Of a stretch of 64,000 nt of DNA, positions 9,919-63,346 are shown in pieces. The first letter of the stretch is position 1, and each line of letters begins with the position of its first letter. The notes under the pieces were generated by a model. The model saw only the letters and a program-made list of their open reading frames with translations. It was not told the DNA's origin and did not search any database. The DNA comes from Octopus vulgaris. Its lineage: Eukaryota. The position numbers were made by a program, and so were the translations under genes. The DNA lies in assembly GCA_951406725.2 (NCBI GenBank), contig OX597830.1:46190001-46254000 (forward strand). Direction: 5' to 3'.

Positions 9919-11005
9919 GCACATATATAAATACATATACAAATATAAAGCTAAGCAAGGTAAATATACTGAATTAATTTAAAGTAATAAAATTATTAAT
10001 TAATAGGAAGATTAAGGGGAAATAGAAACTAGACGCGGAGAACACAACAAAAATATATATAATGAATTATTATGTGACGTTTGGAATGAAAATAAGATAG
10101 AATATAATTAATGAATGAAACTATTATTATATGTACTATTTAAGTTATAAGGCACAAAAAGAAAATTACTCTCCGCAGACACAACAGAATATGCTTCAAC
10201 ACATGAACTCATATAAAGAATCTTGCAAACCAAATCCAAAAACGAAATACTATTTAAATGTTAATTATATAAATCTATATATTCATATGTACTAATTATC
10301 CTGCAAAAACATGTAGACACACTTATATTTGTATAAGGCGGCGAGCTGGCAGAATCGTTAGCACGCAGGGCGAAATGCGTAGCCGTATTTCATCTGCTGT
10401 CACGTGTTCTGGGTTCAAATTCCGCCGAGGTCGACTTTGCCTTTCATCCTTTCGGGGTCGATAAATTAAGTACCAGTTACGCACTGGGGTCGATATAATC
10501 GACTTAATCCCTTTGTTTGTCCCCTCTATGTTTAGCCCCTTGTGGGTAGTAAAGAAATATATATTTGTATATATATAAAAGTGTATATGTACAGACACAC
10601 ACACATATACACATACTTATACATACACATAAATACACATATGCACAGATACATATCTACACAAATATCGAACATAGAATAAAAACAAGGTGAAAAAATT
10701 ATACATATCATAAATTATTTGATCTATTTAAAATTGGTATCTATTGATAGTTATGCATATACCCACCCAAACATATATATAACGGGAAGCTTTATGAAAA
10801 TAAACAAAAGACGAAGGCAGGTGGAGTACAAACAAACAATTGTATTAGTATGGCGCTCAGAAATATAAATAAAACAAGATCCCTGATTACATACACAAAT
10901 ACCCATATATATACACATGCACACACATATATACATACATATACATATATGCACACACCCCTATATCTATGTGTTGTTGTTTTTTCTGTTTTCCCGTTTG
11001 GATTA

Positions 11006-11046
<41 letters not shown>

Positions 11047-12532: not shown

Positions 12533-15500
12533 TATATATAAACCTAATATAAGGACTATCCTTATCTGAGTTAAATTATCAGTATAAATATCAATACTAA
12601 AGGCATATTAATGATATATTAATATAAATAAATGGCAAAATCATTCAGATGTATTATTCATCAATACAAATGAAATAATAGCAATCTACTTACATTAATC
12701 AAAAAGAAATTTACTTGCATGGCTACAGGCTAAAATTTTTTCAAAATGTCTGTTCAAAGGCGATTTGCAGGAAATAAATATTTGATATGATTGTTCAGTA
12801 CCCAACTCTCATCTTTTGTTTGCAATATTATAAGACTGAACATGGCTAATAATATTCCAGTCCAATTTAAAATCTATTTTTCTTATCCTTTAGCTACCAT
12901 ATGAATTTACTCAGACCAGTTAAGTTAATCTTTTTTCTATTAAGTGGTCAGAAAACTGAGTTTTGAATTTATTAGATATTGACCCAATGTATGTATACTC
13001 ATTAAATCCATCAATCTCACATTTATATACAATATTATCTTCATTATAAAGATTTTTAAGTTGGCATCTACCAAATCAATTACAGGATTCATTATTGTCA
13101 AGTTTTCTGTTATTTAAAGATGAAGTTATTCAAAATAAATTTTTGGTTAAGCAATGACCAATCCTGATATTGTTATTAATTATTTGCCTATATCTATTAT
13201 TCATGTTGAAGTGCTTATCAATTATTTATATATTTGTCTAATTAATCTTGTCTTCATATGCATAGCATAAGGGATTATACACCAAATATAATTAGGTCTA
13301 TTATTATTATTATTACTAGCACTAGTGCTAGTTTTGTACTAAATCCCTTTCTTTTTTTTCGGAAATTATGTTCGCCTTTCCATCACATATATTTTTTAAA
13401 ACGTTTGACTGAGCCTCTGCAGATTCTGAGCCCACCCAGAGGTGCAGCTGCACTGGGTAATTAATCATCGCAAATTTGGTGGCTTTGGTGAAGATGAAGG
13501 GAGAGCATGTTAGAAAATCGATAAAGACCACCATGAAAGCAAACCTTCACCAACAAAATGAAATGAATAATCAGGGCTGGCAAAGTTTTCAAATTTCCTA
13601 GCGAGCGGAAAAATGTGACTGGAAATTAATTAGCATCTCAATTTCCACTCGTATCTCAAAACACAAAAGCATGAAATTTCGCTTAAGAAAATCTTTGTAT
13701 CTTAGGTCATTCGTACCTCAAGTTGGGGCTAAAAGGAAAGGTTGCAGTCAATTTAAATGTGGAAACCCACAAGGAATAGTTTTATTGTGTTTCCACTGAT
13801 TGATTGGCAATTTTGGTAAATTTGAATCAAATTAAGATTTCTTGCACCAAAAGGATCACCCTGAAAACCCTATGCCCCTGCTGTGTAGGTAGCAAATGAT
13901 TCGATCTTAGGCTGAATGCAAACAAACGTTTTTTATTAAAATTCTTGGTGGGGGGTCAACTTACTCATTTTTCATTTTTAATCCTACTTGAATAAAACAT
14001 CCTGGGTTCTCTCGCTGGATAACTTAAATCAACAGAAAGCCTAAAAGTAAAGCCCTTCCTAAATAGATTCATTGAATAGGCTCCAACTCTTTTATAGCAC
14101 ACTTAAGGAATGATAGCATATCAAGTATATTTGGTCTTTCATGAAAATCCCGTTCTCTTGTCATTCACTTGGTCTGACTCGTTAATTATTCCCCGCATTT
14201 CTCAAATCAAAAAAGCTTGCACGTTTAAAAGCCAAAACACATGATAACACGTCTTCGCAAAACACAAAAATGCGCTGAAACAGACAGACTGTCTGCAAAT
14301 GCGCACGCACATTCAACTGTTGGGCATAAGCGGTCAGATTATCGATTTTTTTTTTAATGGCTTTCTGGGGTGAAATGAAAAAATCTTCATGACCACCCTC
14401 AGACAGTTTTGAAAGCCATAAACGACAGAAAGAAGGATGGTGTAAAGGGGGGGGGTGTAGTTTGCTGTTGATCGAAATACCTGGGTATTTTCAATGCAAG
14501 GAATATCAAAAGTTGTCAAAATCGTTTTCTTCAGTCGATATTTGATGACAAGAAAATTTTATTAGTTTTTTACTTCTGATACAACAATGTAAGCATTTAT
14601 GAATTTTCTTCTGAACAAGATGCTAGCTTATTTCAAAAAAACATTCAGGTTCCAATGTAAATTGAAGGAATGTAGAATTAAGTGTACTGACCAAACATGC
14701 AATAAAACATTTGCTCTACATTTAAAACCAATCAGTTTGCTATTCAATATGAGTTTCACTTCCCTCTTTCTAATCCCTGAAATAGGTCTACGAAAGTGAT
14801 GAATTCTACCAGATTGCTGATGAATTTGGTGTGATGATATGGCAGGACTTTATGTTTGCTGTAGCTCTCTACCCAGACACTCCACAATTTCTGGCATCTG
14901 TCAAAGATGAAGTTGTTTATCAGGTAACGCACACACAGTTTTTTTTTATTTTTCTTGTACTTTCTCTTCTTTCCTCTTGGGGTTTTACTTCATTTTTTTC
15001 ATTATCCTTTTATTTCTGGTTTTCTTTTCAGTTCTTTTTTTTTTTTCATTCTCTTCTTTCATTCTGTTGTTTATTCTCTTTCTACCGTTCTCTGCTTCTT
15101 CTATTCTGTCCTTCTGTTCTATCACTTGTCTCTTAGATTTTCTTTTAATTTATTTTTTTCTGCAGTTTTTGTATCTTTTTCATCTGTTTCTAAATTCTTT
15201 TATATTGTCATTTTTCTTCCTTCTTAAAATTTTTTTTTATGATCTTGTTTTTCTCTTTCTTGAAAACATCACCAATCATAACATTGCTTACTCTAGCTAC
15301 ATCAGTGTCAGGAAACAAAAAAAAAAAGAGAAAGAAAGGAAGAACCTTTATGTGGTGGTTTGGTCTACTAGAAATAGCAACCAAATGAAAGGATGATCAT
15401 ATTAGTAATGCCTTTGACCATAGGTCTTCTCTATGGCAATAGGACTGACCAAAGGCTAACAAAACAATATCAATACCAACTACAGAAGGAGCTTTTACAA

Positions 15501-16353
15501 GGCTGCTTGATCTGCTAGAAATAGTAGCCAAATCTCCCTTAAATCCCACACTACCATCTTGAAAAGAAGAAGGGCTCATTAGATAATGTATTCTCTTAAA
15601 AAAACTGGATAGTTTTAAATAACATTTTGTTTTGTCTGGGGTGGGTCATTCTCTTTTAGTGCCTTATAATTTGACACACTCACCAGTAAAGTTTCCACTC
15701 ATTTACTTATCTTTTCTAAAATTTTCGTTGGGTCTTGCAACCTTTTCAATAGTCATTGACTCTGTCCGTTATCCAATCTGCATTCTTTTTGTTTGCTTGT
15801 GTGCACATACACATGTACATATGTATGTATGCAAGTGTGTGTGTATGCATGCATGTGTGCATATGTATATATGTATATGTGTGTACGTTTGTATGTAATC
15901 TGCATATTCATGTGTTTGTGAGTTCGTGTTTTTGTGTATGTGTGCGTGTGTGTGTGCTCACGCCTCTGTCTCCTTGTGTGTGCATGTCTGAGTTTGTCTG
16001 TATGGGTTTTTGTGACTATTTAGTGTGTCTGTATGTATGGATGTGTGTCTCCATATTTGTCCTTGTGTGAAGTGTGTGTGTATATGGTCACCTGTTTCGG
16101 TCTTCATTTATGTATGTATATCTGTTAATATTCCCCTTGTACCTATCCGTCTTTATGTCTATCTGTTTACATTCATATCCATTTACCTACATGCATACAC
16201 ATATATGTATATATACACACATCTACATAACAGCCCAGTACTTATTCTATCGGTCTCTTTTTGCCGAACCGCTAAGTGATGGGGACATAAACACACCAGC
16301 ATCGGTTGTCAAGCAATGCTAGGGGGACAGACACAGACACACAAACATACAGG

Positions 16354-16413
<60 letters not shown>

Positions 16414-16991
16414 TACATATATACGACGGGCTTCTTTCAGTTTCCATCTACCAAATCCACTCACAAGGCTTTGGTCGGCCCAAGGCTATAGTAGAAGACA
16501 CTTGCCCAAGGTGCCACGCAGTGGGACTGAACCCGGAACCATGTGGTTGGTAGGCAAGCTACTTACCACACAGCCACTCCTGCGCCTGAAATATATAATT
16601 TCAATACATGTGTATATTTAAGGATAAACTACTAGGTGGATAACCATATGCTAGAAGATCACCTAGTGGTTTATCCCTAAATATACATATGTATTAAAAT
16701 TTTTTCTGATTTTTCAGATTTTTATATATGCTAGGCTACTGGTTTTAAATTAATATTAATTGAATTAATTTTCAATTTATCTCCCTCATGTGACCTCGTG
16801 TGTACCGTTGGCTATTTTTTTTTTCCTCTGTCTTCCCTTCTCGGGATCTTTCCTTCTCCTATGTTTCCGATGAAGAGCTCCGCTAGAAACGTTAAACCCT
16901 CCTTCTTCCCTTCTTTCCTGAGCGTCCAATAATACTATATTTGTTCCACGTCCTCGCGTTGTTGTTTTTTTTTGTGTTTTCTTGTTTGGAT

Positions 16992-17058
<67 letters not shown>

Positions 17059-20000
17059 CCATATTGATATGGCAGTCTTATAGATATAAGACTAAAAGCT
17101 GTCGCTGATTAGCTCCATGAGGCCATCGCCTTAAGATAGCTATTTGACACACAAACTGTGTCCATTATAACCTTCGAACAAGGGAGGTCAGCCGCTTCAC
17201 ACTGCCAGTCAGACAGCTACAGACGCGTTTCGGGGTATTTGCCCTTTGTCAATGTAGCGTAGTCGACCCAGCAGGTGTCACCACTGATCGTCTCTGTTCG
17301 AAGGTTTTATTTACCTAGTTTCGGTGGAATACTACGCTACATTGACAAAGGGCAAATACCCTGAAACGCGTCTGTAGCTGTCTGACTGGCAGTGTGAAGC
17401 GGCTGACCTCCCTTGTTCGAAGGTTATAATGGACACAGTTTGTGTGTCAAATAGCTATCTTAAGGCGATGGCCTCATGGAGCTAATCAGCGACAGCTTTT
17501 AGTCTTATATCTATAAGACTGCCATATTAATATGGCGATAACAATTAATTTCCAGTAACGCTGCTGTAATCTCTTTTAGAGAGACTTAGTAATTTTAATA
17601 TTTCTATTATATAATATATATATATATATAAAATAACATGTTGATCTAAAAAGATGGAGCCTTTAAACTTTGCTCATTCAGGGTTGACATGATGCTAAAT
17701 AATATTAACACTGTTCCTGCTGCTCTTATTTTTTCCCATTCTTTGTTTACTTTTCCTTTTTGCTTTGTTTATTACTTTTTGTTTATTTCCTTGGTAGGTT
17801 CGTCGTTTGATGCATCACCCATCTATTGTTATTTGGGCTGGAAACAATGAAAATGAAATTGCTCTGGTAAACGGATGGTCAGTTTGTTGATATTTAAGCT
17901 GTTCTTCACACACACTAATAATAATAATAATAATAATAATCCTCTCTAGGACAGGCACAAGGCCTGAAATTTAGGGAAGGGTGCAAGTCAATTACATCGA
18001 CCCCCCCCCCCCCTGGTACTTATTTCATCAGCCCCAGAAGGATGAAAGGCAAAGTCGACCTTGCCAGAATTTGAACTCAGAACATAATGGTAGACAAAAT
18101 ACTGCTAAGCATTTCACTCGTCATGCTAAAGACTCAGCCAGCTAGCTACCATTTTAATAATAATAACAGTTTCAAAAATTTTGATACAAGGGTAGCCATT
18201 TTAGGGGAGGGGGATGAGTTGGTTAAGAGGTGGGCTACTAACCCCAAGATTCCAAGTTCGATTCCAAGCAGTGACCTAAATAATAATAATAATAATAATA
18301 TCGAAAAATACCTTAGGAATGAGAACCCAGGTTTGAAATTTCCCCAAGACACCTGATGAAGGCTGGAAGGTATATCAGCTGCAACGTTGTGTTAACAACA
18401 AACAAGATATGGTCAAATGTCTGTCAAATGTAAATAATGTAACTTAGAAAGGTTGAAAGACAATCATAATAATAATCACCCCTGATATCATCCCCACTAC
18501 CACCATCTGTAAAGTTAATTTCATCAACATTACCCTCCTCATCACTACTGCTCTAACACAGCATCATGCCTTTCCCTGTGTCTTTTGTTCTCCTTCTTTC
18601 TCTCTCTTCTGCTCCTGTCATTTGGTTCTATTTGTTGGAAGATTGTCTCCTCACTGGAGTCCAGATCAACCCAGCTTCAATTGTTGATTTATACATTGTC
18701 TGTCTGGTATTTATTTTTTATGATTTGTCTGTCATCTGGATATTTATTCTAGTTGTTTATTGTACGGAATATTGCTTCCATTATTTATATTTGATTTATT
18801 ATACAATAGTTCTATAAATTGTTTTAGCCGTATTGCTTACATGGTATGAATGTAAGCAATGTGTCTGTAGAAATAGCATTCTTGTGAACAGAAAAACAGG
18901 CAACACATTTTTCAGTCCTTGATTGGGATTTTAAGAGCCATGAAATAAAAGATAGTTGGCACATCAGTAATTTATTTTTTATACAGAATTCTGTACAATA
19001 TATAGATACAGGGGACAATTGCAACACACTGCATCACACAACATAAAACACAGCTTGACAGAAAAACCTAAGTAAACAGCACACCTGTATTAAACTGAAT
19101 TCTTTCCCAAAAGAAGCAATTAATGATGGAAACAACACTCATAGCACAATAAACTCCCACAAATACATGAAATAATTTCATACTAATGCAGGAATCCTAA
19201 ACAAATATAAACTAATGCAATGGCTTATCCGAATATACCATGAAATAATTGCAGTGTATTTAAACTCAGGATAATGAGGTTGTCCAATTATCTTATCTAC
19301 AAAGGCCACATTTTTCTTTTTACTTTCCGGAGGGTGAGTTTTGTTTTTTAAAACAACCATTTCCTAAGTAGTTGTAGATAATGTATTTTGGATATTAGGA
19401 AAATGGTGGTGAGGGTGATGAGAAGGAGGAGGAGGAGGAGGAGGTAGAGGAAGTTGATGATTTGTTAGCTCTCAACCCTTTTTTTCACTTGCTTTTAGTA
19501 ATTGTATCTTTTTCTTTCTCTTTCCTCAGGTTCCCTCTCAGCTTAGAACATTACAAGAAATATCGGGAAGCCTACATCAAGCTATATGTAGACACAATTG
19601 GTACTAACGTCATGAAGGAAGATAACAGCCGTCCATTTGTGACATCAAGCCCTTCAAATGGGGTCAAAACGAAATCAGACGGAGGGATTTCGCCCAATCC
19701 TGCTTCTCAAAATTATGGCGACAGTAAATAACTTTCTAATTATTTTTTTTTATTTGATTTCATGCATCGAGTGAGACCATATTTGGCTGATTTGGTAAGT
19801 ACTGGATAATCAGCTAGAGGTGTGGAGTTCAATTCCTGTAATTCGCACTACATTTAACTCTCCAATGGACAAGTCCACCTTGCTGGAAAGAGGGACATAA
19901 AATTGGATCAAGTTATGAAAAATCAGTTTTTCATAGAAATAAAAACACTTTCATGTCACTGACTGGATGTGAACCCTTGACTGCTTTGTTACATTTAATG

Positions 20001-29029: not shown

Positions 29030-32000
29030 GTGTGTATAAGGATGAAAAGGAACACACGAGTTGATATATATGAAAAAACAAGTCAAGATAGAAAATGCTA
29101 AAATAATTTTATAAAGAACATTTCAGTACCGGTTTCAGTCATTTTGAAACCTTTTCAACTGTAACGATTAAATAATTAAATTTAGAAAAATTAAAAGAAA
29201 AGGTTTTTTAAAAGAATATTTGCCACTTCCATTAACACGCAAATAGTGAGTGGTGTTCCGCAAGGCACTGTTCTGGGACCACTACTGTTCATAATGGCCC
29301 TCTCAGACATGCCCTCAGCCATGCAGAGAGCCACGATCACAAGTTATGCAGATAATACAAAAGTTTCACAGGCAATACAGAACCCTGAAGACACTAAGCA
29401 CCTGCAATGTGAGCTGGACAAAATATACAAGTGGGCTGAAAAGAATAGCATGCAGTTCAATGCTGCAAAGTTTCAAGCTTTATACTATCAGCATGCAAAA
29501 CTAAATGCAATACCCAATAAATACACTGGACCTGGAGGGATTGCAGTCCCAGAGGCACAATCAGTGCGAGACCTGGGTATTTACATGAGTGATGATGCAA
29601 CCTTTCATGTGCATGTTGCTAAATTGGCAATGAAATGTAGGCAGCTGACCGGATGGATTCTTAGAACCTTTAGAACAAGAGACCAGGAAACCATGATGGT
29701 CCTCTGGAGGACACTTGTCCTAAGCCACTTTGACTATTGCTCTCAGCTATGGTCACCATCCAGTGTCAAGTTAATCACAGAACTTGAGGCGATCCAACGA
29801 AGCTACACGAAGAAGATAGCCTCTGTGCAGCATATAAGCTATTGGGAAAGACTCAAGAGATTGAGACTCTATTCCTTAGAGCGTAGGCGAGAAAGATATG
29901 CCATAATATACATCTGGAAGATCCTAGAAGGACTTGTCCCAAACTTTGGCATTGAGAGTTACACAAAGCCAGAACTGGGCGCCACTGCATAGTGCCAAGG
30001 ACTCCAAATTTGCCATCAAGATGTAGGACAAGATACTGTGATAGCCTGGGCTTCCGAGGCCCACAGCTCTTCAATATCCTCCCGAAGAACCTAAGAGACC
30101 TGCATGGGGTGGATGCAGATGTCTTTAAAATGAAACTGGATCTCTTCTTGTCAGGTGTCCCAGATGAACCAACTTCACGGCAGGAGGTGCAGATGAGGGC
30201 AGCTGCATCGAACTCTCTCATGCACCAGATGGCATTTGCTAAAAAGCATTCGTGAAGTAAAATCATGTAGCAACACCAAATGGCAGTGCCCCAGCATGGC
30301 CACAGCTTGTGAGCTAAAACTAAATAAAATAAAAAAAAAAGATAAAAATAAAATAAATAAATGTGTGTGTCCCCAATGTTGTTTGTGTGTGTCTGTGTCC
30401 CCAATGTTGTTTGTTAACCATGCCTCTCTCTTTCTTTGAATATAGTTAGACAAAACTTCAGATGTTGTTCTCAAAATTCCTGCATCAGAAATTGTGGACC
30501 ACAAGAAATGTTCTCTTACATCATGTTTCTTGTTTTTCTCCTTGGATTCTGAGGATTCTGTGTCAACATCTTGGTTGCCGCTTGGTCGTCTTGTACCTTC
30601 AGGAGGAATCCCATTTGCAAAAATAAAGGTATGGCATTTGAAATGAATATTTGTCAATTTTGCATATTTTAAGTCGCTTGACATGCTAGAAATAGCAGCC
30701 AAATTTCCCTCAGTTCTATAAAGCAGGACATATTGGATGATGTAGTCCGGTGGCTTTTTTGCCATTTGATAAGAATTTCAAAAAATTTTTTTTGTCTTGG
30801 GAGTTTAATTCTATTTAACATGAGAAAAGAGCTTAGAAATTTATATTTCAATCTTGGTTATTGTGGCATTGGCCAAATATTTATCTTAAATGTTTTCCTT
30901 GGCCAACAAATACAGGATTGCTTTCCAATATCAATTTTAGAAAATAGAAATTGCTGAAGAAATGGAAATTATTCATTGAAAGAAACATTTTCTTTCAGAA
31001 TACGTAAGAACAGTAAAATAGTGAGCAGTCTATCTGATGTTCTTCCACTATTCTGAGTTTGAATCTTGCTAAAGTTGCATTTGTTTTCCACCTCTCTGAG
31101 GTCAGTAACCTGACAATAGACTGAATACTCTTTACTTTGCCACACTCCTATAATATTAGTCTTACACAAATAAAAAAGATACCGTGCCTACTGAATTCTT
31201 GTACTGCCTTCTATCTATCCCACCAACTATTTCACTGATTCAAAAGTGAGTGGGTCAAGAGGATGCCCATCCTTGCATATGAGTGGTCGCTGTAGTTATT
31301 ATACAAGTAAAAGGCCCTAATTATTTTTGAATCTGTATTCCGATCGTACTGGAGTCAACTTTGTGTTTGATCCTCCTCCTGACGTTAGCTAAAAATTAAA
31401 TTTCATGGAATTGATTTGAGTCCACTCTTCTTTTTACAAAACTGGCCTTTTATCCAAGAAATCATTTACTTGGCTTTGGAGTAAGTAAAAAAACTTACAG
31501 CCAGTGCACAGTCATGAGTTCACTCTGGAATTAAATTCAAGAAATAGTTCTACAAATTCCCTAAAACATAAGCTTACTTCACATTCAACTTAAAATAAAG
31601 ATCAAACAAACAAGAATTTCACCAAACTTCCGAGGGTACTTTAGAATCATCAGACTAAGCAAATATCACAGAAAGCTCTCGGACCTGTCCACAGTTGATA
31701 AATTATAAAGAGTGTGCCTTCTATGACTTAGTTCATTCCCAGAATCACTATGGAATGATTTTAGAGAGATAGTCATGGTTCAACAAGACTCCAGTGATAG
31801 TTAACTTGTGAAGGTTTTAAAATACTTTTTTCTTTTTCCACATAGAAAAATACATTGACTTAACCCTTTTGTTACTGTGTTTCTTTCAATTAATTTTAAA
31901 TATAACAAAGAATTTAGTAAAATAACTTAGTTATCGTTAAGCTAGTCTTAGAAACATAAATAGTGACTAAGATTTGGTGGAAGATTTTAATTCAAAACTT

Positions 32001-34332: not shown

Positions 34333-34973
34333 GGAGAGGATAATGAAGGAGAATATATAAAACATCTGAAGTTTGTCAGATGCAAGCAGAGAAATCTTAA
34401 ATATCTTTCAATTTCGCTTGCCTTTACAATACAGAGACTTTGTTCCTATTTTAATTATATTTTAAGTCATCTGAGAAAATCATTGACACAATATCCAAAC
34501 TATAAACTGTTACTCTTCAGAGTATACCTGGATATTTAGTGACTGCCGTATGACCTGGTGGTAGTTGTGCAGCTGTCAGTCTCAAACTATTGCGCCATTG
34601 CAGTGTTACTGGAAATATTGTCTTTGTGTAATAATATGGAAGTCTGATTCCCTAAGGAGTGGATCAGCAGAAAGACCAAACTTTCTTATGTCTGCTACTG
34701 TATTGTGTTCATAGTCAAGAAACTTTTTCTCTCAAACAGTCTGTGGCTGTAAAGAAGTGCTACATTTCTTGTCAAGACTGATTCTACTTTAAAAATGGTG
34801 AATGTTTTGCTGACATGTCTCATTGAATTTGCTTTCTCTTGTGGAAATGGCTTTTGTTTTGCAAGGTACTTGATGACTCTGTTGGTACTGCAGCAGTACC
34901 ACATAAAATGTACCCAGTACACTCTGTAAAGTGATTGGAGTTAGGCAGGACATTCAGTTGTAGAAATCCTGCT

Positions 34974-35648
34974 GAAACAGGCAATGGAGCCGAGTACAGC
35001 TCACAGCCTTGCCGACTCCAGGAAACAGGCAATGGAGCCGGGTACAGCTCACAGCCTTGCCGACTCCAGGAAACAGGCAATGGAGCCGGGTACAGCTCAC
35101 AGCCTTGCCGACTCCAGGAAACAGGCAATGGAGCCGGGTACAGCTCACAGCCTTGCCGACTCCAGGAAACTCACAGCCTTGCCGACTCCAGGAAACAGGC
35201 AATGGAGCCGGGTACAGCTCACAGCCTTGCCGACTCCAGGAAACAGGCAATGGAGCAAGCTCACAGGCCGAGCCGGGTAGCCGGGTACAGCTCACAGCCT
35301 TGCCGACTCCAGGAAACAGGCAATGGAGCCGGGTACAGCTCACAGCCTTGCCGACTCCAGGAAACAGGCAATGGAGCCGGGTACAGCTCACAGCCTTGCC
35401 GACTCCAGGAAACAGGCAATGGAGCCGGGTACAGCTCACAGCCTTGCCGACTCCAGGAAACAGGCAATGGAGCCGGGTACAGCTCACAGCCTTGCCGACT
35501 CCAGGAAACAGGCAATGGAGCCGGGTACAGCTCACAGCCTTGCCGACTCCAGGAAACAGGCAATGGAGCCGGGTACAGCTCACAGCCTTGCCGACTCCAG
35601 GAAACAGGCAATGGAGCCGGGTACAGCTCACAGCCTTGCCGACTCCAG
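34974..35648. repeat. 48-bp tandem array (about 14 units) inside an RTE 3'-end copy
   Basis: Unit GAAACAGGCAATGGAGCCGGGTACAGCTCACAGCCTTGCCGACTCCAG; 12 regular units, one deleted unit and one scrambled unit. Confidence 0.95.
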
Positions 35649-37292
35649 TCAAACCAACCAACCCATCCCAGCATGGAAAACGGATGTTAAATGACGATGG
35701 TGATGATGCATCAGCACAGACATGGCATTGAAGTAATGAAATTCACTTTGTAATCATCCAAGTTTCAGATTCCATCCCACTGTATGGCACTTTGGCCAAG
35801 TGGCTTCTACAGTAACCTTAGACTCACCAATGCTTTGTCAGGGAAATTGGAAGGCGGAAACTGTACAGAAGTCTCTGTGTATGAACGAGTAAGTGTTTAC
35901 ATGAAGATCTGCGTTGACACCGTGTGGACAACAGTGGTGTTTGCATCTCCTGTAAACAATATATTCTGTAGCCTGGCAGTTCTGACATGTGAAGACCTGT
36001 GGAATAAAAATCATAGCTTATTTAAAAAGCAGGTAAAGTCTGGTAACAGAAACAGCTTCCAGCCATTCACTACATCCTTGGTGTCATCTAATCAATGCCA
36101 GCATGGAAAAAGTGAATGGAAAAAGTATGCTGCTGGATGAGTTCTGCTAAACTATCTGACCCAGAAACTGGACAAAGTGTTCACTGGTACCCGTACAACA
36201 AGGTGGGTTAAATGATTCCAGAGAAATATATTTACAGCAAGCCAACCTGGTAAAACATCTCATTGGAGGTTTTTCTGTGATAAGGAACAGTTATACAAGC
36301 ACTAGAGTCTGAAGTAACTAGTGCGTATCTTTTTCAAAGGCTATCAACTGTGCTATAAAGCAGCAAATGCATCTGAGCATGGAGAATTAATATTTGGTGT
36401 TTCAAACTTTGATAGTTTCAAACTTAAGATATTTTTTTTTGTCTTGAAACATTTCTTATTTCATTGCTCCAAAATGAATTTTCTCTCTTGCACCATAAAC
36501 AAAACAAGTAATTACATAGTGCTCCCACTAGTTACAGCAGGAACATTGATCAATACAATAACATGATTTAAATGTTCTTAGTGATTTTGTTATGTTGTAT
36601 TACTCACCTATTTCAGCATGCAATTTTTGGTTAAATCCTTACAAAAAATGACCAAAAAAAAAAAGCTGAACAAAACAACAAAAAAAAAATTAATGAAAAA
36701 TCTCTGGAAGTTTAGACTGCAAGATTTATTTTAAACATCAAATGATAATAAAGAAAAAAAAAATTGTTAAAAAAATGTAATTAAAAAAAATAAAATACAG
36801 TTTTTTGTCCATATATATATATATATACTTTTTTAATAATTTCTTTTGAATTATGATTTGTACATTGTGTGTAAATAATTTAAAGCTGAGCTACAGTGTT
36901 TATAATGGTGAGTGAGTATAATGAGGAATAATGAAGATTGGAAGAAAAAACATGGAGGAGGAAAAATACAAGGTCAATTATATTCTTGAAAAAGCTTAAC
37001 ACAAATGGTTATCAAAGTTTTACTTCCTCTTTTCTTTTCAAATGAGTGACTAGGGTTACTTTGAAAATAAATTAAACTCGCACACATTCAAACATGTACA
37101 CACACACACAAAGTCTGCTATATATATAAAACCTATATATTTTACATTAGGATTATAAATATATATTATATATATATATATATACATATATATAATAATA
37201 TTAGGGAGTATATCCAAACTTACAGGGAAAAATTAGATTTAGGATTAAATCAAATTTCACAGTTGCCTAATAGTGGTTTTATCTCTAATTTA

Positions 37293-50776: not shown

Positions 50777-52160
50777 CTATAAATTTGGCACTATGCAGTG
50801 TCGTCCCGTTCTAGCATTGGTGTAGCTTTCAATGCCAAAATTTGGCACAATTCCTTCCAGGATCTTCCAGATATATATTACTGCATACCTCTCCCGTCTT
50901 CTCTCCAGAGAGTAGAGTCTTAGCTGTTTCAACCTTTCCCAGTAGCTGAGCTGTTGCAAAGAGATGATCTTCTTTGTGAATCCTCTGGATTGCTTCAAGG
51001 TTCGCTGTTAATTTTACACTGGTGGGTGACCATAGCTGTGAGCAGTAATCCAGGTGGCTGAGGACTAATGTCCGCCAGAGGACCATCATGGTTTCCTTAT
51101 CTCTGGTTCTGAATGTTCTTAGGATCCATCCAGCCAGTCATCTGCACTTTGTCGCCGTCCTGGTAAGGTGCACTTGAAAAGAGGCATCATCACTCATTTC
51201 AATACCCAGGTCCCTCACTGACTTAGGTTTTGGGATTGAAATTCCCTGTGGACCAGTGTACTCTCTAAGTTTCATATTCAGTTTTGGATGCTGGTAGCAC
51301 AAGGCTTGGAATTTTTCAGCATTAAACTGCATATTATCCTCAGCCCATCTGTAAATTGAGTCCAACTCCTGCTGCAGGTGTGCAACATCACTGGGGTTCT
51401 ATATTTTCTGCGAGACTTTCATATCATCTGCATAGTTTGCAAGGGTGGCTATCCGAGCATATCTGAGAGGGCCACTATAAAAAGCAGTGGTCCCAAGACA
51501 GTGCCCTGTGGAACACTGCTCACTATTTGTGTGTTCATAGAGGTGGCTCCACGACTGCCTGACTCCTATCTTTGAGGAAGTCATGTAACCACTCTCCAAG
51601 TTTTCCAGCTATGCCAAGGTCATGCAGTTTGTGGCATATCATACCATGTTCCGCTTTATCAAAAGTTTTTGCAAAATCAAGGTATATTACATCCACATTT
51701 GATTTGTTGAGTAACTGCCTCAACACCCAGTCATAATGCTGTAAGAGCTGGGTCAGGCAGCTCCTACCTGGTCGAAAACCATGCTGGGTATTACTCAGCA
51801 AGTTATTTTCCTCCAGGAATGCAATTAGTTTCTTTCTGACTATCCTTTCCATGACTTTGCTGATGTGTGAAGTCAGAGAGATAGGCCTATAGTTTTTGGC
51901 ATCTGCTCTACTTCCCCCTTTATGTATTGGGCATATTATTCCCTCCTTCAGCTTGGTTGGCAGTTTGCCATTTGTAAGCAAGCTCTGGAAGAGAATCTTG
52001 AGGGATTTTGCCAGGGCATGCTTACACGCTTTGAGGAGGATTGCTGGGAAACCATCAGGATCAGCAGTTGAGTTTGAGTCCACTTCATCTATGGCTAGTA
52101 GTATATCTTCTTCGCTAATGTCAATGTATTCCATTTTGTTCACTTGTCTGTGTTCCAACG
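50777..52160 (-). mobile_element. CR1-clade LINE RT fragment, degenerate
   Basis: NYRPISLTSHISKVMERIV...QHGFRPGRSCLTQLL...VDVIYLDFAKTFDK...YADD...DYCSQLWSP; same family as 29220-30345. Confidence 0.92.
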
Positions 52161-52639
52161 ATGTATACATATTGTTTGTATTATTTGTATATATACATAC
52201 ATACAAAAAAAGCCTTGTGAGTGGATTTGGTAGACGGAAACTGAAAGTAGCCTGTCATATGTGTTTATGTATATACATACAAATATATATATACATATAT
52301 ATGTATGTATATAGATATATATATATATATCACGTAAAAAGCACCAAGTGATCGTGGCCGTTGCCAGCCTTGCCTGGCACCTGTGCCAGAGGCACGTAAA
52401 AAGCACCCACTACACTCACGGAGTGGTTGGCGTTAGGAAGGGCATCCAGCTGTAGAAACACTGCCAGATCAGACTGGAGCCTGGTGCAGCCTTCTGGCTT
52501 CCCAAACCCCGGTTAAACCGTCCAACCCATGCTAGCATGGAAAACGGACGTTAAACGATGATGATAAATATATATATATACATATATATAAAAATATATA
52601 TATATAATATATACATAATATATATATAATATATACATA

Positions 52640-62095: not shown

Positions 62096-63346
62096 ACAGG
62101 TTGTCAAGAAAGTTCTTGCGGTTTTTAACCTTTAAATTCAAGTGCACATATCTCGGCTCAAACAAAAGTTTATTAATCGAAATAAACACCATCAGAATCA
62201 ACACACTTTTGCCAACGCAAAACAAGTTTATTGATGCCAGTAGTGTAAAAATCCTGTGATCTGGTGGTGATGAAGTTGTTGCAGGCATGTTTGGTATTGT
62301 CTTGGTTTTTGAAGCATTTCCCATGCAGGAAGTTGTTGAGATGCTTGAATAAGTGGTAGTCAGTAGGCAAGAGGTCTGGGGAGTATGGCGGATGAGGCAG
62401 AGTTTCGCAGCTCAATTTGTTCAACTTCTGCAGAGTCAGTTGTGCGATGTGCAGCCGAACATTGTCGTGGAGAAGAATTGGTCCTTTTCTATTGACCAAT
62501 GCTGGCTGTTGTTGTCAGAGTTTCTTATGCATTTCATCCATTTGCTCACAGTAGTTCTCCGGATGAGACCAACCACAGACCACCAAGCAGTCACTATGAC
62601 CTCCTTTTGGTGCAACTTTGGCTTCGGAGAGTGTTGTGGAGCTTTGTCAGCATCCAACTACTGAGCTGAGCGTTACCGGTTGTCGTAAAGAATCCATTTT
62701 TCATCACAAAACACAATCCGGTCGAGAAACGGGTCGTTCTTATTGCGTAAAAGAAGGGAAGACGACACTTCAAAACGGCGTTTTTTTTTTTGTTGTCGTT
62801 CAATTTGTGTGGCACCCATTTCTCAAGTATTTTTGTTTTTCCAATCTCTTTCAAGTTGTTGGAATTTGTTGTATACGTTACGTCTAATTCAGAAGCAAGC
62901 TCTCGAACAGTTGTGCGTGGATTGGCTTCCACTAAGGCTCTTAGTTGATTGTCATCAAAAGCCGATGGTCGACCAGTACGCTTATCATCTTCAAGACTCT
63001 CGTCATCACTACGAAATTTCTTGAACCACCATTGTGCTGCACGTTCATTAGTGGTTCCTGGGTCAAAAGCATCATTGATATCGTGAGCTGTTTCAGCAGC
63101 TTTTCGGCCTAGCTTGAACTGGAATAAGAAAACTGTGCAAATTTACTTTTTGTCCATGTTGTATTCAACGTTCCAGAAAAAATGGCCTAATTATTCAAAA
63201 AGAAAAAGAGTAACACGATTAGATAAAGCGAGAAACGGGCTTTAAAATGATATATAAAGTCAAAGTAATTTAACAAAAATTAATTTGAAAATACATCACT
63301 TAAAACCAAAATTTAAAATTCCACAAGAACTTTCTTGACAACCTAA
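62096..63346 (-). mobile_element. Full-length decayed mariner transposon (Hsmar1/cecropia-like)
   Basis: TA-flanked TIRs AGGTTGTCAAGAAAGTTCTTGYGG, 1.25 kb in total. Confidence 0.93.
62173..63157 (-). pseudogene. Mariner transposase pseudogene
   Basis: MDKK*ICTVFLFQFKLGRKAAETA..., WVPHKL, HDN, HPPYSPDLLPTDYHLF; contains stops and frameshifts. Confidence 0.92.

Follow-up and report, generated by a model that had tools for sequence, protein, structure and literature searches.

Head-to-head partial copies of an abundant hammerhead-bearing repeat, likely a retrozyme inserted by Penelope-like enzymes, in a beta-mannosidase intron of Octopus vulgaris

Retrozyme monomers in animals measure 170-400 nt, with mussel units of 350-390 bp, and their movers are proposed to be Penelope-like elements (PLEs) (PMC7229834). 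Insertions of PLEs themselves contain an inverted, 5'-truncated copy and a tail on one side, with a bias towards (TA)n (PMC8557442), and the inverted copies are most often arranged head-to-head (PMC3846280). When a target-site duplication is present, it measures 8-10 bp. In the only PLE enzyme studied in vitro both strands are cut and extended, and two internal reverse transcription starts on an uncut RNA template bound the tail (PMC11167929). Hammerhead ribozymes with a U3-A8 core have natural examples that are active in vitro (PMC3088659), and about 1,300 such motifs occur in Schistosoma (PMC4209133). Of the Xenopus retrozyme dimers, one of nine cleaved in vitro (bioRxiv 10.64898/2026.07.22.740005). 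The genome of O. vulgaris harbors recently active PLEs, with 31 families, and ribozymes are absent from the main text of the 2026 repeat annotation in which these are described (PMC13282606).

The window analyzed here is a stretch of 64,000 nt from O. vulgaris (contig OX597830.1, positions 46,190,001 to 46,254,000 of the forward strand). Within it, two inverted arms of 210 nt each (17054-17263 and 17331-17540) are separated by 67 nt and differ at two positions, 17066/17528 and 17232/17362, both of which form G.U pairs in plus-strand RNA. Each arm holds one type I hammerhead with a U3-A8 core. An earlier note made from the letters alone had reported these arms and motifs, and the observation was confirmed:

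17216-17258, minus strand: type I hammerhead whose core is U3-A8, on the antisense side of the host gene; cleavage predicted between 17222 and 17221
17336-17378, plus strand: type I hammerhead with U3-A8 core, in the host-sense pre-mRNA; predicted cut after 17372 (C17)

The plus-strand motif has the core TTGACAA (U3 at 17342, A8 at 17347), a helix I of 6 bp, a helix II of 4 bp with a 6-nt loop, the GAA segment and the helix III palindrome ACGCGT. On the minus strand the mismatch at 17232 disrupts the closing pair of helix II, which leaves 3 bp. The combination of a full core, a palindromic helix III and a 6-bp helix I was found twice in the window and in none of 300 block shuffles. The 6-nt loop II and a 3-nt bulge in helix I resemble those of the Sm-alpha ribozyme of S. 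mansoni. The motif had been described as a minimal hammerhead, a label that does not fit: in native context the 4-bp helix II stands beside a helix I of 6 bp that goes on through an internal loop into a lengthy extension. This is the anatomy of a canonical metazoan type I ribozyme as set out in PMC4209133.

Helix III is unable to close alone, having 2 bp and a 2-nt loop. When two copies were cofolded, the minimum-energy structure was the double hammerhead (-40.9 vs 2 x -17.7 kcal/mol), in line with the earlier expectation that a ribozyme with a palindromic helix III needs a partner copy. The hammerhead is modelled to act in pairs, and cleavage is predicted for the dimer alone. An Rfam search for hammerheads, proposed in the earlier note, went against it, returning no hammerhead match at E<=10 over 16500-18200 or 17195-17280. 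Across the whole window nothing reached gathering score, and the best matches below threshold were miRNA models on long hairpins. The octopus repeat family thus escapes the Rfam hammerhead models. A ribozyme pattern search of metagenome and viral contigs gave 0 loci. A separate hammerhead-like motif lies on the minus strand at 29127-29158, with a U3-A8 core, the helix III palindrome ACCGGT and weak helices I and II. It was recovered in 0 of 300 shuffles under criteria set after the motif had been seen, has no BLAST similarity to the main element and is possibly a decayed member of a different family.

The stretch is present in 20 of 24 listed public sequencing runs, from 10 studies with five organism labels; for the family analysis, contigs of four of the 24 runs were aligned, on 17264-17900 only. 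In two DNA runs the contig depth, which is a sum over contigs and not a copy number, reached 8e4-9e5 over 17286-17593 vs 30-37 on unique intron and exon contigs. This excess of three to four orders of magnitude identifies a major repeat. High depth persists for about 60 nt beyond the right arm, to a masked AT-rich stretch (in both DNA runs, 3.8e5-6.0e5 summed over 17550-17593). The element therefore exceeds the foldback in size and lies between two (TA)n tracts. Limits of 17054-17540 had been drawn in the earlier note and are too narrow, as family sequence reaches about 17610. The insertion is young, because its right arm is identical to several family contigs without any difference. Family contigs also occur in a run labelled here X6, but with a repeat this common, carried-over DNA would give the same picture as expression. 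Besides a weak match of 52 nt, no second copy was found within the window. That match, on the minus strand at 34600-34648, is 77% identical over 52 nt to 17513-17564 (E 0.001), has no ribozyme core that we found nearby and is possibly the end of an old relative.

Sequence variation among the copies bears on the ribozyme. Helix III reads ACGCGT, ACATGT or ACTAGT and is palindromic in all three subfamilies. Both changes of ACATGT occur at matching depth in all four runs, and ACTAGT is found in 56 and 61 contigs. While ACATGT could arise by two CpG transitions, ACTAGT could not come from CpG decay. In the helix that closes loop 1, one contig of run X1 has a two-sided change from A-U to G-C (matched by start and depth), and none of the 40 difference rows examined, out of 55, lies in the catalytic core. 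Loose ends before 17347 and 17570 reveal a subfamily whose upstream sequence is complementary to its own extension, unlike the upstream segment in the window, which suggests a different fold or junction. At both arm mismatches the left arm has G where the right arm has T, and it is the right arm that agrees with the family contigs; both therefore look like A-to-G changes on the plus strand of the left arm. These are just two positions, and ordinary transitions more probably account for them; with A-to-G confined to one strand, an edited antisense template is a possible but less probable source.

The 67 nt between the arms, at first taken for a loop, are no spacer: on the minus strand, the family itself has this sequence upstream of the ribozyme. 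Contigs of X1, X6 and a third run, X9 (three of the four runs) contain the joint 17264/17331 on opposite strands, with a depth of 2129 in X9, and a joint at 17293/17331 occurs in a copy with 14 of 108 letters different. The segment is similar to 17383-17450, and on the minus strand it therefore pairs with sequence downstream of the ribozyme, extending helix I. From 17332 to 17054 the fold obtained is an extended stem that ends in the hammerhead (z -5.39; 0 of 200 shuffles). As far as 17332, one family contig of X1 and two of X6 agree with the window, beyond which they depart from it. The joint 17264/17331 was also considered as a recurrent inversion point and rejected, as the loose end at 17332 and the fold show native continuity.

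Behind 17332, the X1 loose end continues with 15 other letters and then with the reverse complement of 17596-17610, matched at 15 of 15 positions (chance 0.0004-0.005). The X6 loose ends, of 21 letters, enter the reverse complement of the end of the family's extension by 6 letters only, and the start of the 15-letter linker is identical in the two runs. Three contigs show this tail-to-head link among the 24 loose ends listed out of 302; they come from two runs that may both be RNA, and none is listed for the DNA runs. Through it the unit appears to close on itself at about 364 nt (280 + 15 + 69 = 364 nt). Its GC content is 41%. No ORF is present, each of the three native-sense frames being interrupted by stops in both copies. 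A model circle assembled from slices of the window folded with a z of -5.92 (0 of 60 shuffles), leaving the ribozyme accessible in silico.

Since the family continues 70 nt past the right arm and the upstream segment is native, the insertion spans 17054-17610 and consists of two partial units placed head to head:

16996-17053, no strand: (TA)n tract on the left flank, the likely target
17054-17332, minus strand: partial unit of 279 nt in native orientation, with the 69-nt upstream segment, the hammerhead and 168 nt past the predicted cut
17264-17332, minus strand: native segment upstream of the ribozyme (the earlier 'loop'), complementary to 17379-17430; duplex -45.7 kcal/mol
17331-17332, no strand: head-to-head junction with a 2-nt overlap common to both copies, inferred from the window sequence and from contigs diverging at 17332
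17331-17610, plus strand: second partial unit of 280 nt, 5'-truncated 5 nt before helix I and including the 70-nt extension; its right end, in AT-rich sequence, is uncertain by a few nt
17541-17610, plus strand: 'tail'-like family extension of 70 nt at one end only, placed by summed depth in both DNA runs
17611-17630, no strand: short (TA)n tract on the right flank

The minus-strand copy does not have the 70-nt extension. No target-site duplication is readable, both flanks being (TA)n. Other junctions between the upstream segment and the arms occur at low depth, at 17310/17505 (57 and 54), 17325/17391 (107) and 17323/17444 (3), the last of which may reflect internal similarity. Because the junctions in other copies fall at other coordinates, the inversion was likely built anew at each insertion. 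At this locus the junction sits at the midpoint of the insertion, with copies of 279 and 280 nt. Such equal length is a probable coincidence, as other junctions have unequal coordinates (the ends of those copies being unseen). To the left of the insertion, a decayed hammerhead-like core with one change in its first box was noted by eye on the plus strand at 16867-16894, some 100 nt before the (TA)n tract, and 16960-16995 matches 10972-11007 at 89%. This may be an older repeat, with the insertion targeted to its TA tail. Further left, 16597-16701 forms an AT-rich imperfect palindrome (80% over 110 nt).

As the best explanation we regard it as probable that the foldback is made of head-to-head partial copies of a high-copy repeat, likely a non-LTR retrozyme of about 364 nt, and that a Penelope-like element likely supplied the enzymes for the insertion. 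Retrozymes are recognized by head-to-tail units of 150-450 bp in genomic arrays, and the octopus figure of 364 nt comes from contig links. Membership of the class is incomplete, since arrays, circles and cleavage are predicted features of the family. As a mechanism, we propose that source arrays would be transcribed and that neighboring ribozymes would pair through their palindromic helix III, releasing monomers that may circularize. A Penelope-type endonuclease and reverse transcriptase would then cut a (TA)n tract and prime one cDNA from each DNA end. The cDNAs would start at two internal sites about 70 nt apart (17540 and about 17610) on uncut or circular RNA, pass the cut site, stop after about 280 nt and be joined through the 2-nt overlap. 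Both copies read through the predicted cut site, for which the template must have been uncut, multimeric or circular. A single fold-back cDNA was also considered and rejected, since it cannot supply the 70-nt extension.

The alternative that survives best, which we nevertheless hold to be unlikely, is that the unit represents a pLTR belonging to an autonomous Penelope-like element, the locus a doubly truncated pLTR-only stump and the tail-to-head contigs partial-tandem junctions. The insertion architecture matches that of PLEs, and both the U3-A8 core and opposite-strand pairs 100-700 bp apart are known from PLEs of Schistosoma (PMC4209133). However, PLE ribozymes are described as minimal, with no helix III or loop-loop contact, whereas the octopus helix I is long and has an internal loop. 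The 70-nt extension is not crossed by any open frame, yet the pLTR plus tail of Penelope/Poseidon contains the first codons (PMC11167929, PMC3846280). Partial-tandem junctions also sit poorly with one linker start shared between two runs. By eye, no ORF with a reverse transcriptase and a GIY-YIG domain was recognized among 60 window frames of 110 aa or more. The earlier note had proposed a very young inverted-pLTR insertion; its youth and its Penelope-style inversion hold, but the pLTR as the whole story is not supported, the loop being native and the unit of about 364 nt being free of ORFs. Since retrozymes and pLTRs are related in Xenopus (bioRxiv 10.64898/2026.07.22.740005), the pLTR and retrozyme readings grade into each other.

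Under another explanation, largely refuted and very improbable, the locus would be a MITE or foldback DNA transposon, palindromic in its mobile form, that has terminal inverted repeats of 210 bp and acquired a ribozyme. Long near-perfect arms, a short center, TA at both arm ends and high copy number would all be expected of such an element. However, the repeats are not terminal, because family sequence extends 70 nt beyond one arm, and the center is native upstream sequence that continues elsewhere, with junction coordinates that vary among copies. That the inversion is an assembly artefact of the repeat is scarcely credible. Inverted PLE structures are known to trouble assemblies (PMC8557442), and among 32 of 3866 contig pieces none bridges the locus's own inversion junction or its right flank, where 17601-17641 is masked. 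Against this, different family segments lie at the two ends of the copies, the arms differ at two positions, the junction has a 2-nt overlap, the flanks are not mirrored and similar junctions at other coordinates recur in independent runs.

The host gene is Octopus beta-mannosidase, whose last exon shares 99% identity with a protein of Octopus vulgaris, and the foldback is intronic. The exons on its two sides are:

14786-14923, plus strand: upstream beta-mannosidase exon, recognized by eye from translation and splice sites
17798-17877, plus strand: beta-mannosidase exon with an NNENE motif; match to 6ddt_A, E 1.9e-6

The intron carrying the foldback is therefore 14924-17797. We take the NNENE motif in the second of these exons to have the acid/base role. 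This exon begins 257 nt past the arm end at 17540, which agrees with the earlier placement of the foldback in a beta-mannosidase intron about 260 nt upstream of an exon, and the end of the hairpin lies 187-257 nt from the splice acceptor. In the pre-mRNA the hairpin is predicted to form a duplex of 210 bp (-449 kcal/mol). Fold prediction gave helix I a pairing probability of 0.0 there, and likewise in the nascent transcript to 17400, bearing out the earlier claim that the sense ribozyme is masked; both ribozymes at the locus are predicted to be so. As same-sense ribozymes do not occur twice on any transcript of the locus and each is hidden by the 210-bp duplex, this copy is predicted not to function as a ribozyme, and the host gene is probably unaffected by the single insertion. 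One X6 contig aligns over exon 17798-17877 only, from which a spliced beta-mannosidase message exists in X6, an animal that may lack the insertion. A host-selected intronic dsRNA or ribozyme switch controlling beta-mannosidase splicing is barely plausible, for in spite of a very stable hairpin close to the splice acceptor the insertion is young, the next exon is covered by a spliced contig and nothing shows conservation. Elsewhere in the window we noted by eye a GC-rich tandem repeat open in several frames (34935-35740), LINE reverse-transcriptase fragments (29195-29992 and 51535-52254) and a mariner-like transposase fragment (62173-63142).

So far, the case for PLEs as mobilizers of animal retrozymes has been made from the ribozyme type that they share, from their co-occurrence and from the phylogeny of pLTRs (PMC7229834; bioRxiv 10.64898/2026.07.22.740005). 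A unit of retrozyme type with a PLE footprint, thousands of copies and mappable junctions makes that hypothesis testable from one genome. More tentatively, and with doubts that slightly outweigh our confidence, we propose that Octopus holds an unrecognized, very abundant circular-RNA retroelement with a U3-A8 hammerhead, whose insertions have a two-start, two-ended Penelope footprint made from an uncut or circular template. If so, the genome itself would show directly which elements move animal retrozymes and by what mechanism, and each event would be able to leave a long dsRNA within an intron, in a host noted for extensive RNA editing. The components are each known; the combination of a cephalopod host, a canonical U3-A8 ribozyme and a PLE footprint on a retrozyme-type unit is apparently undescribed. 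Neither the octopus family nor the combination was found in the titles and main-text passages searched on retrozymes and hammerheads, and supplements and Repbase/Dfam may already contain the family.

Compared with the non-LTR retrozymes of metazoans (PMC7229834), the octopus family has the same canonical type I hammerhead with a weak palindromic helix III, the same kind of ORF-less unit (about 364 nt, GC under 50%, thousands of copies) and a self-paired fold with an accessible ribozyme, the octopus fold being in silico. It differs in its U3-A8 core and its cephalopod host, both absent from the main text of that study. Metazoan retrozymes also occur as tandem units, whereas the octopus locus holds two truncated units head to head, and the word 'inverted' was not found in the same main text. 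The hammerheads of the Schistosoma PLE Cercyon share the U3-A8 covariation and the opposite-strand pairs 100-700 bp apart, but those motifs are minimal, with a long helix II and a short helix I (PMC4209133). Relative to endonuclease-bearing PLEs, the octopus tail-like extension of 70 nt is longer than the 30-40 nt of a PLE tail (PMC8557442), and where PLEs combine an RT/GIY-YIG ORF with a minimal ribozyme, the octopus unit is without such an ORF and its ribozyme is canonical. With these same elements it shares an inverted, 5'-truncated copy placed head to head, an extension at one end only, an AT-rich or (TA)n target and cDNA that passes the ribozyme cut site.
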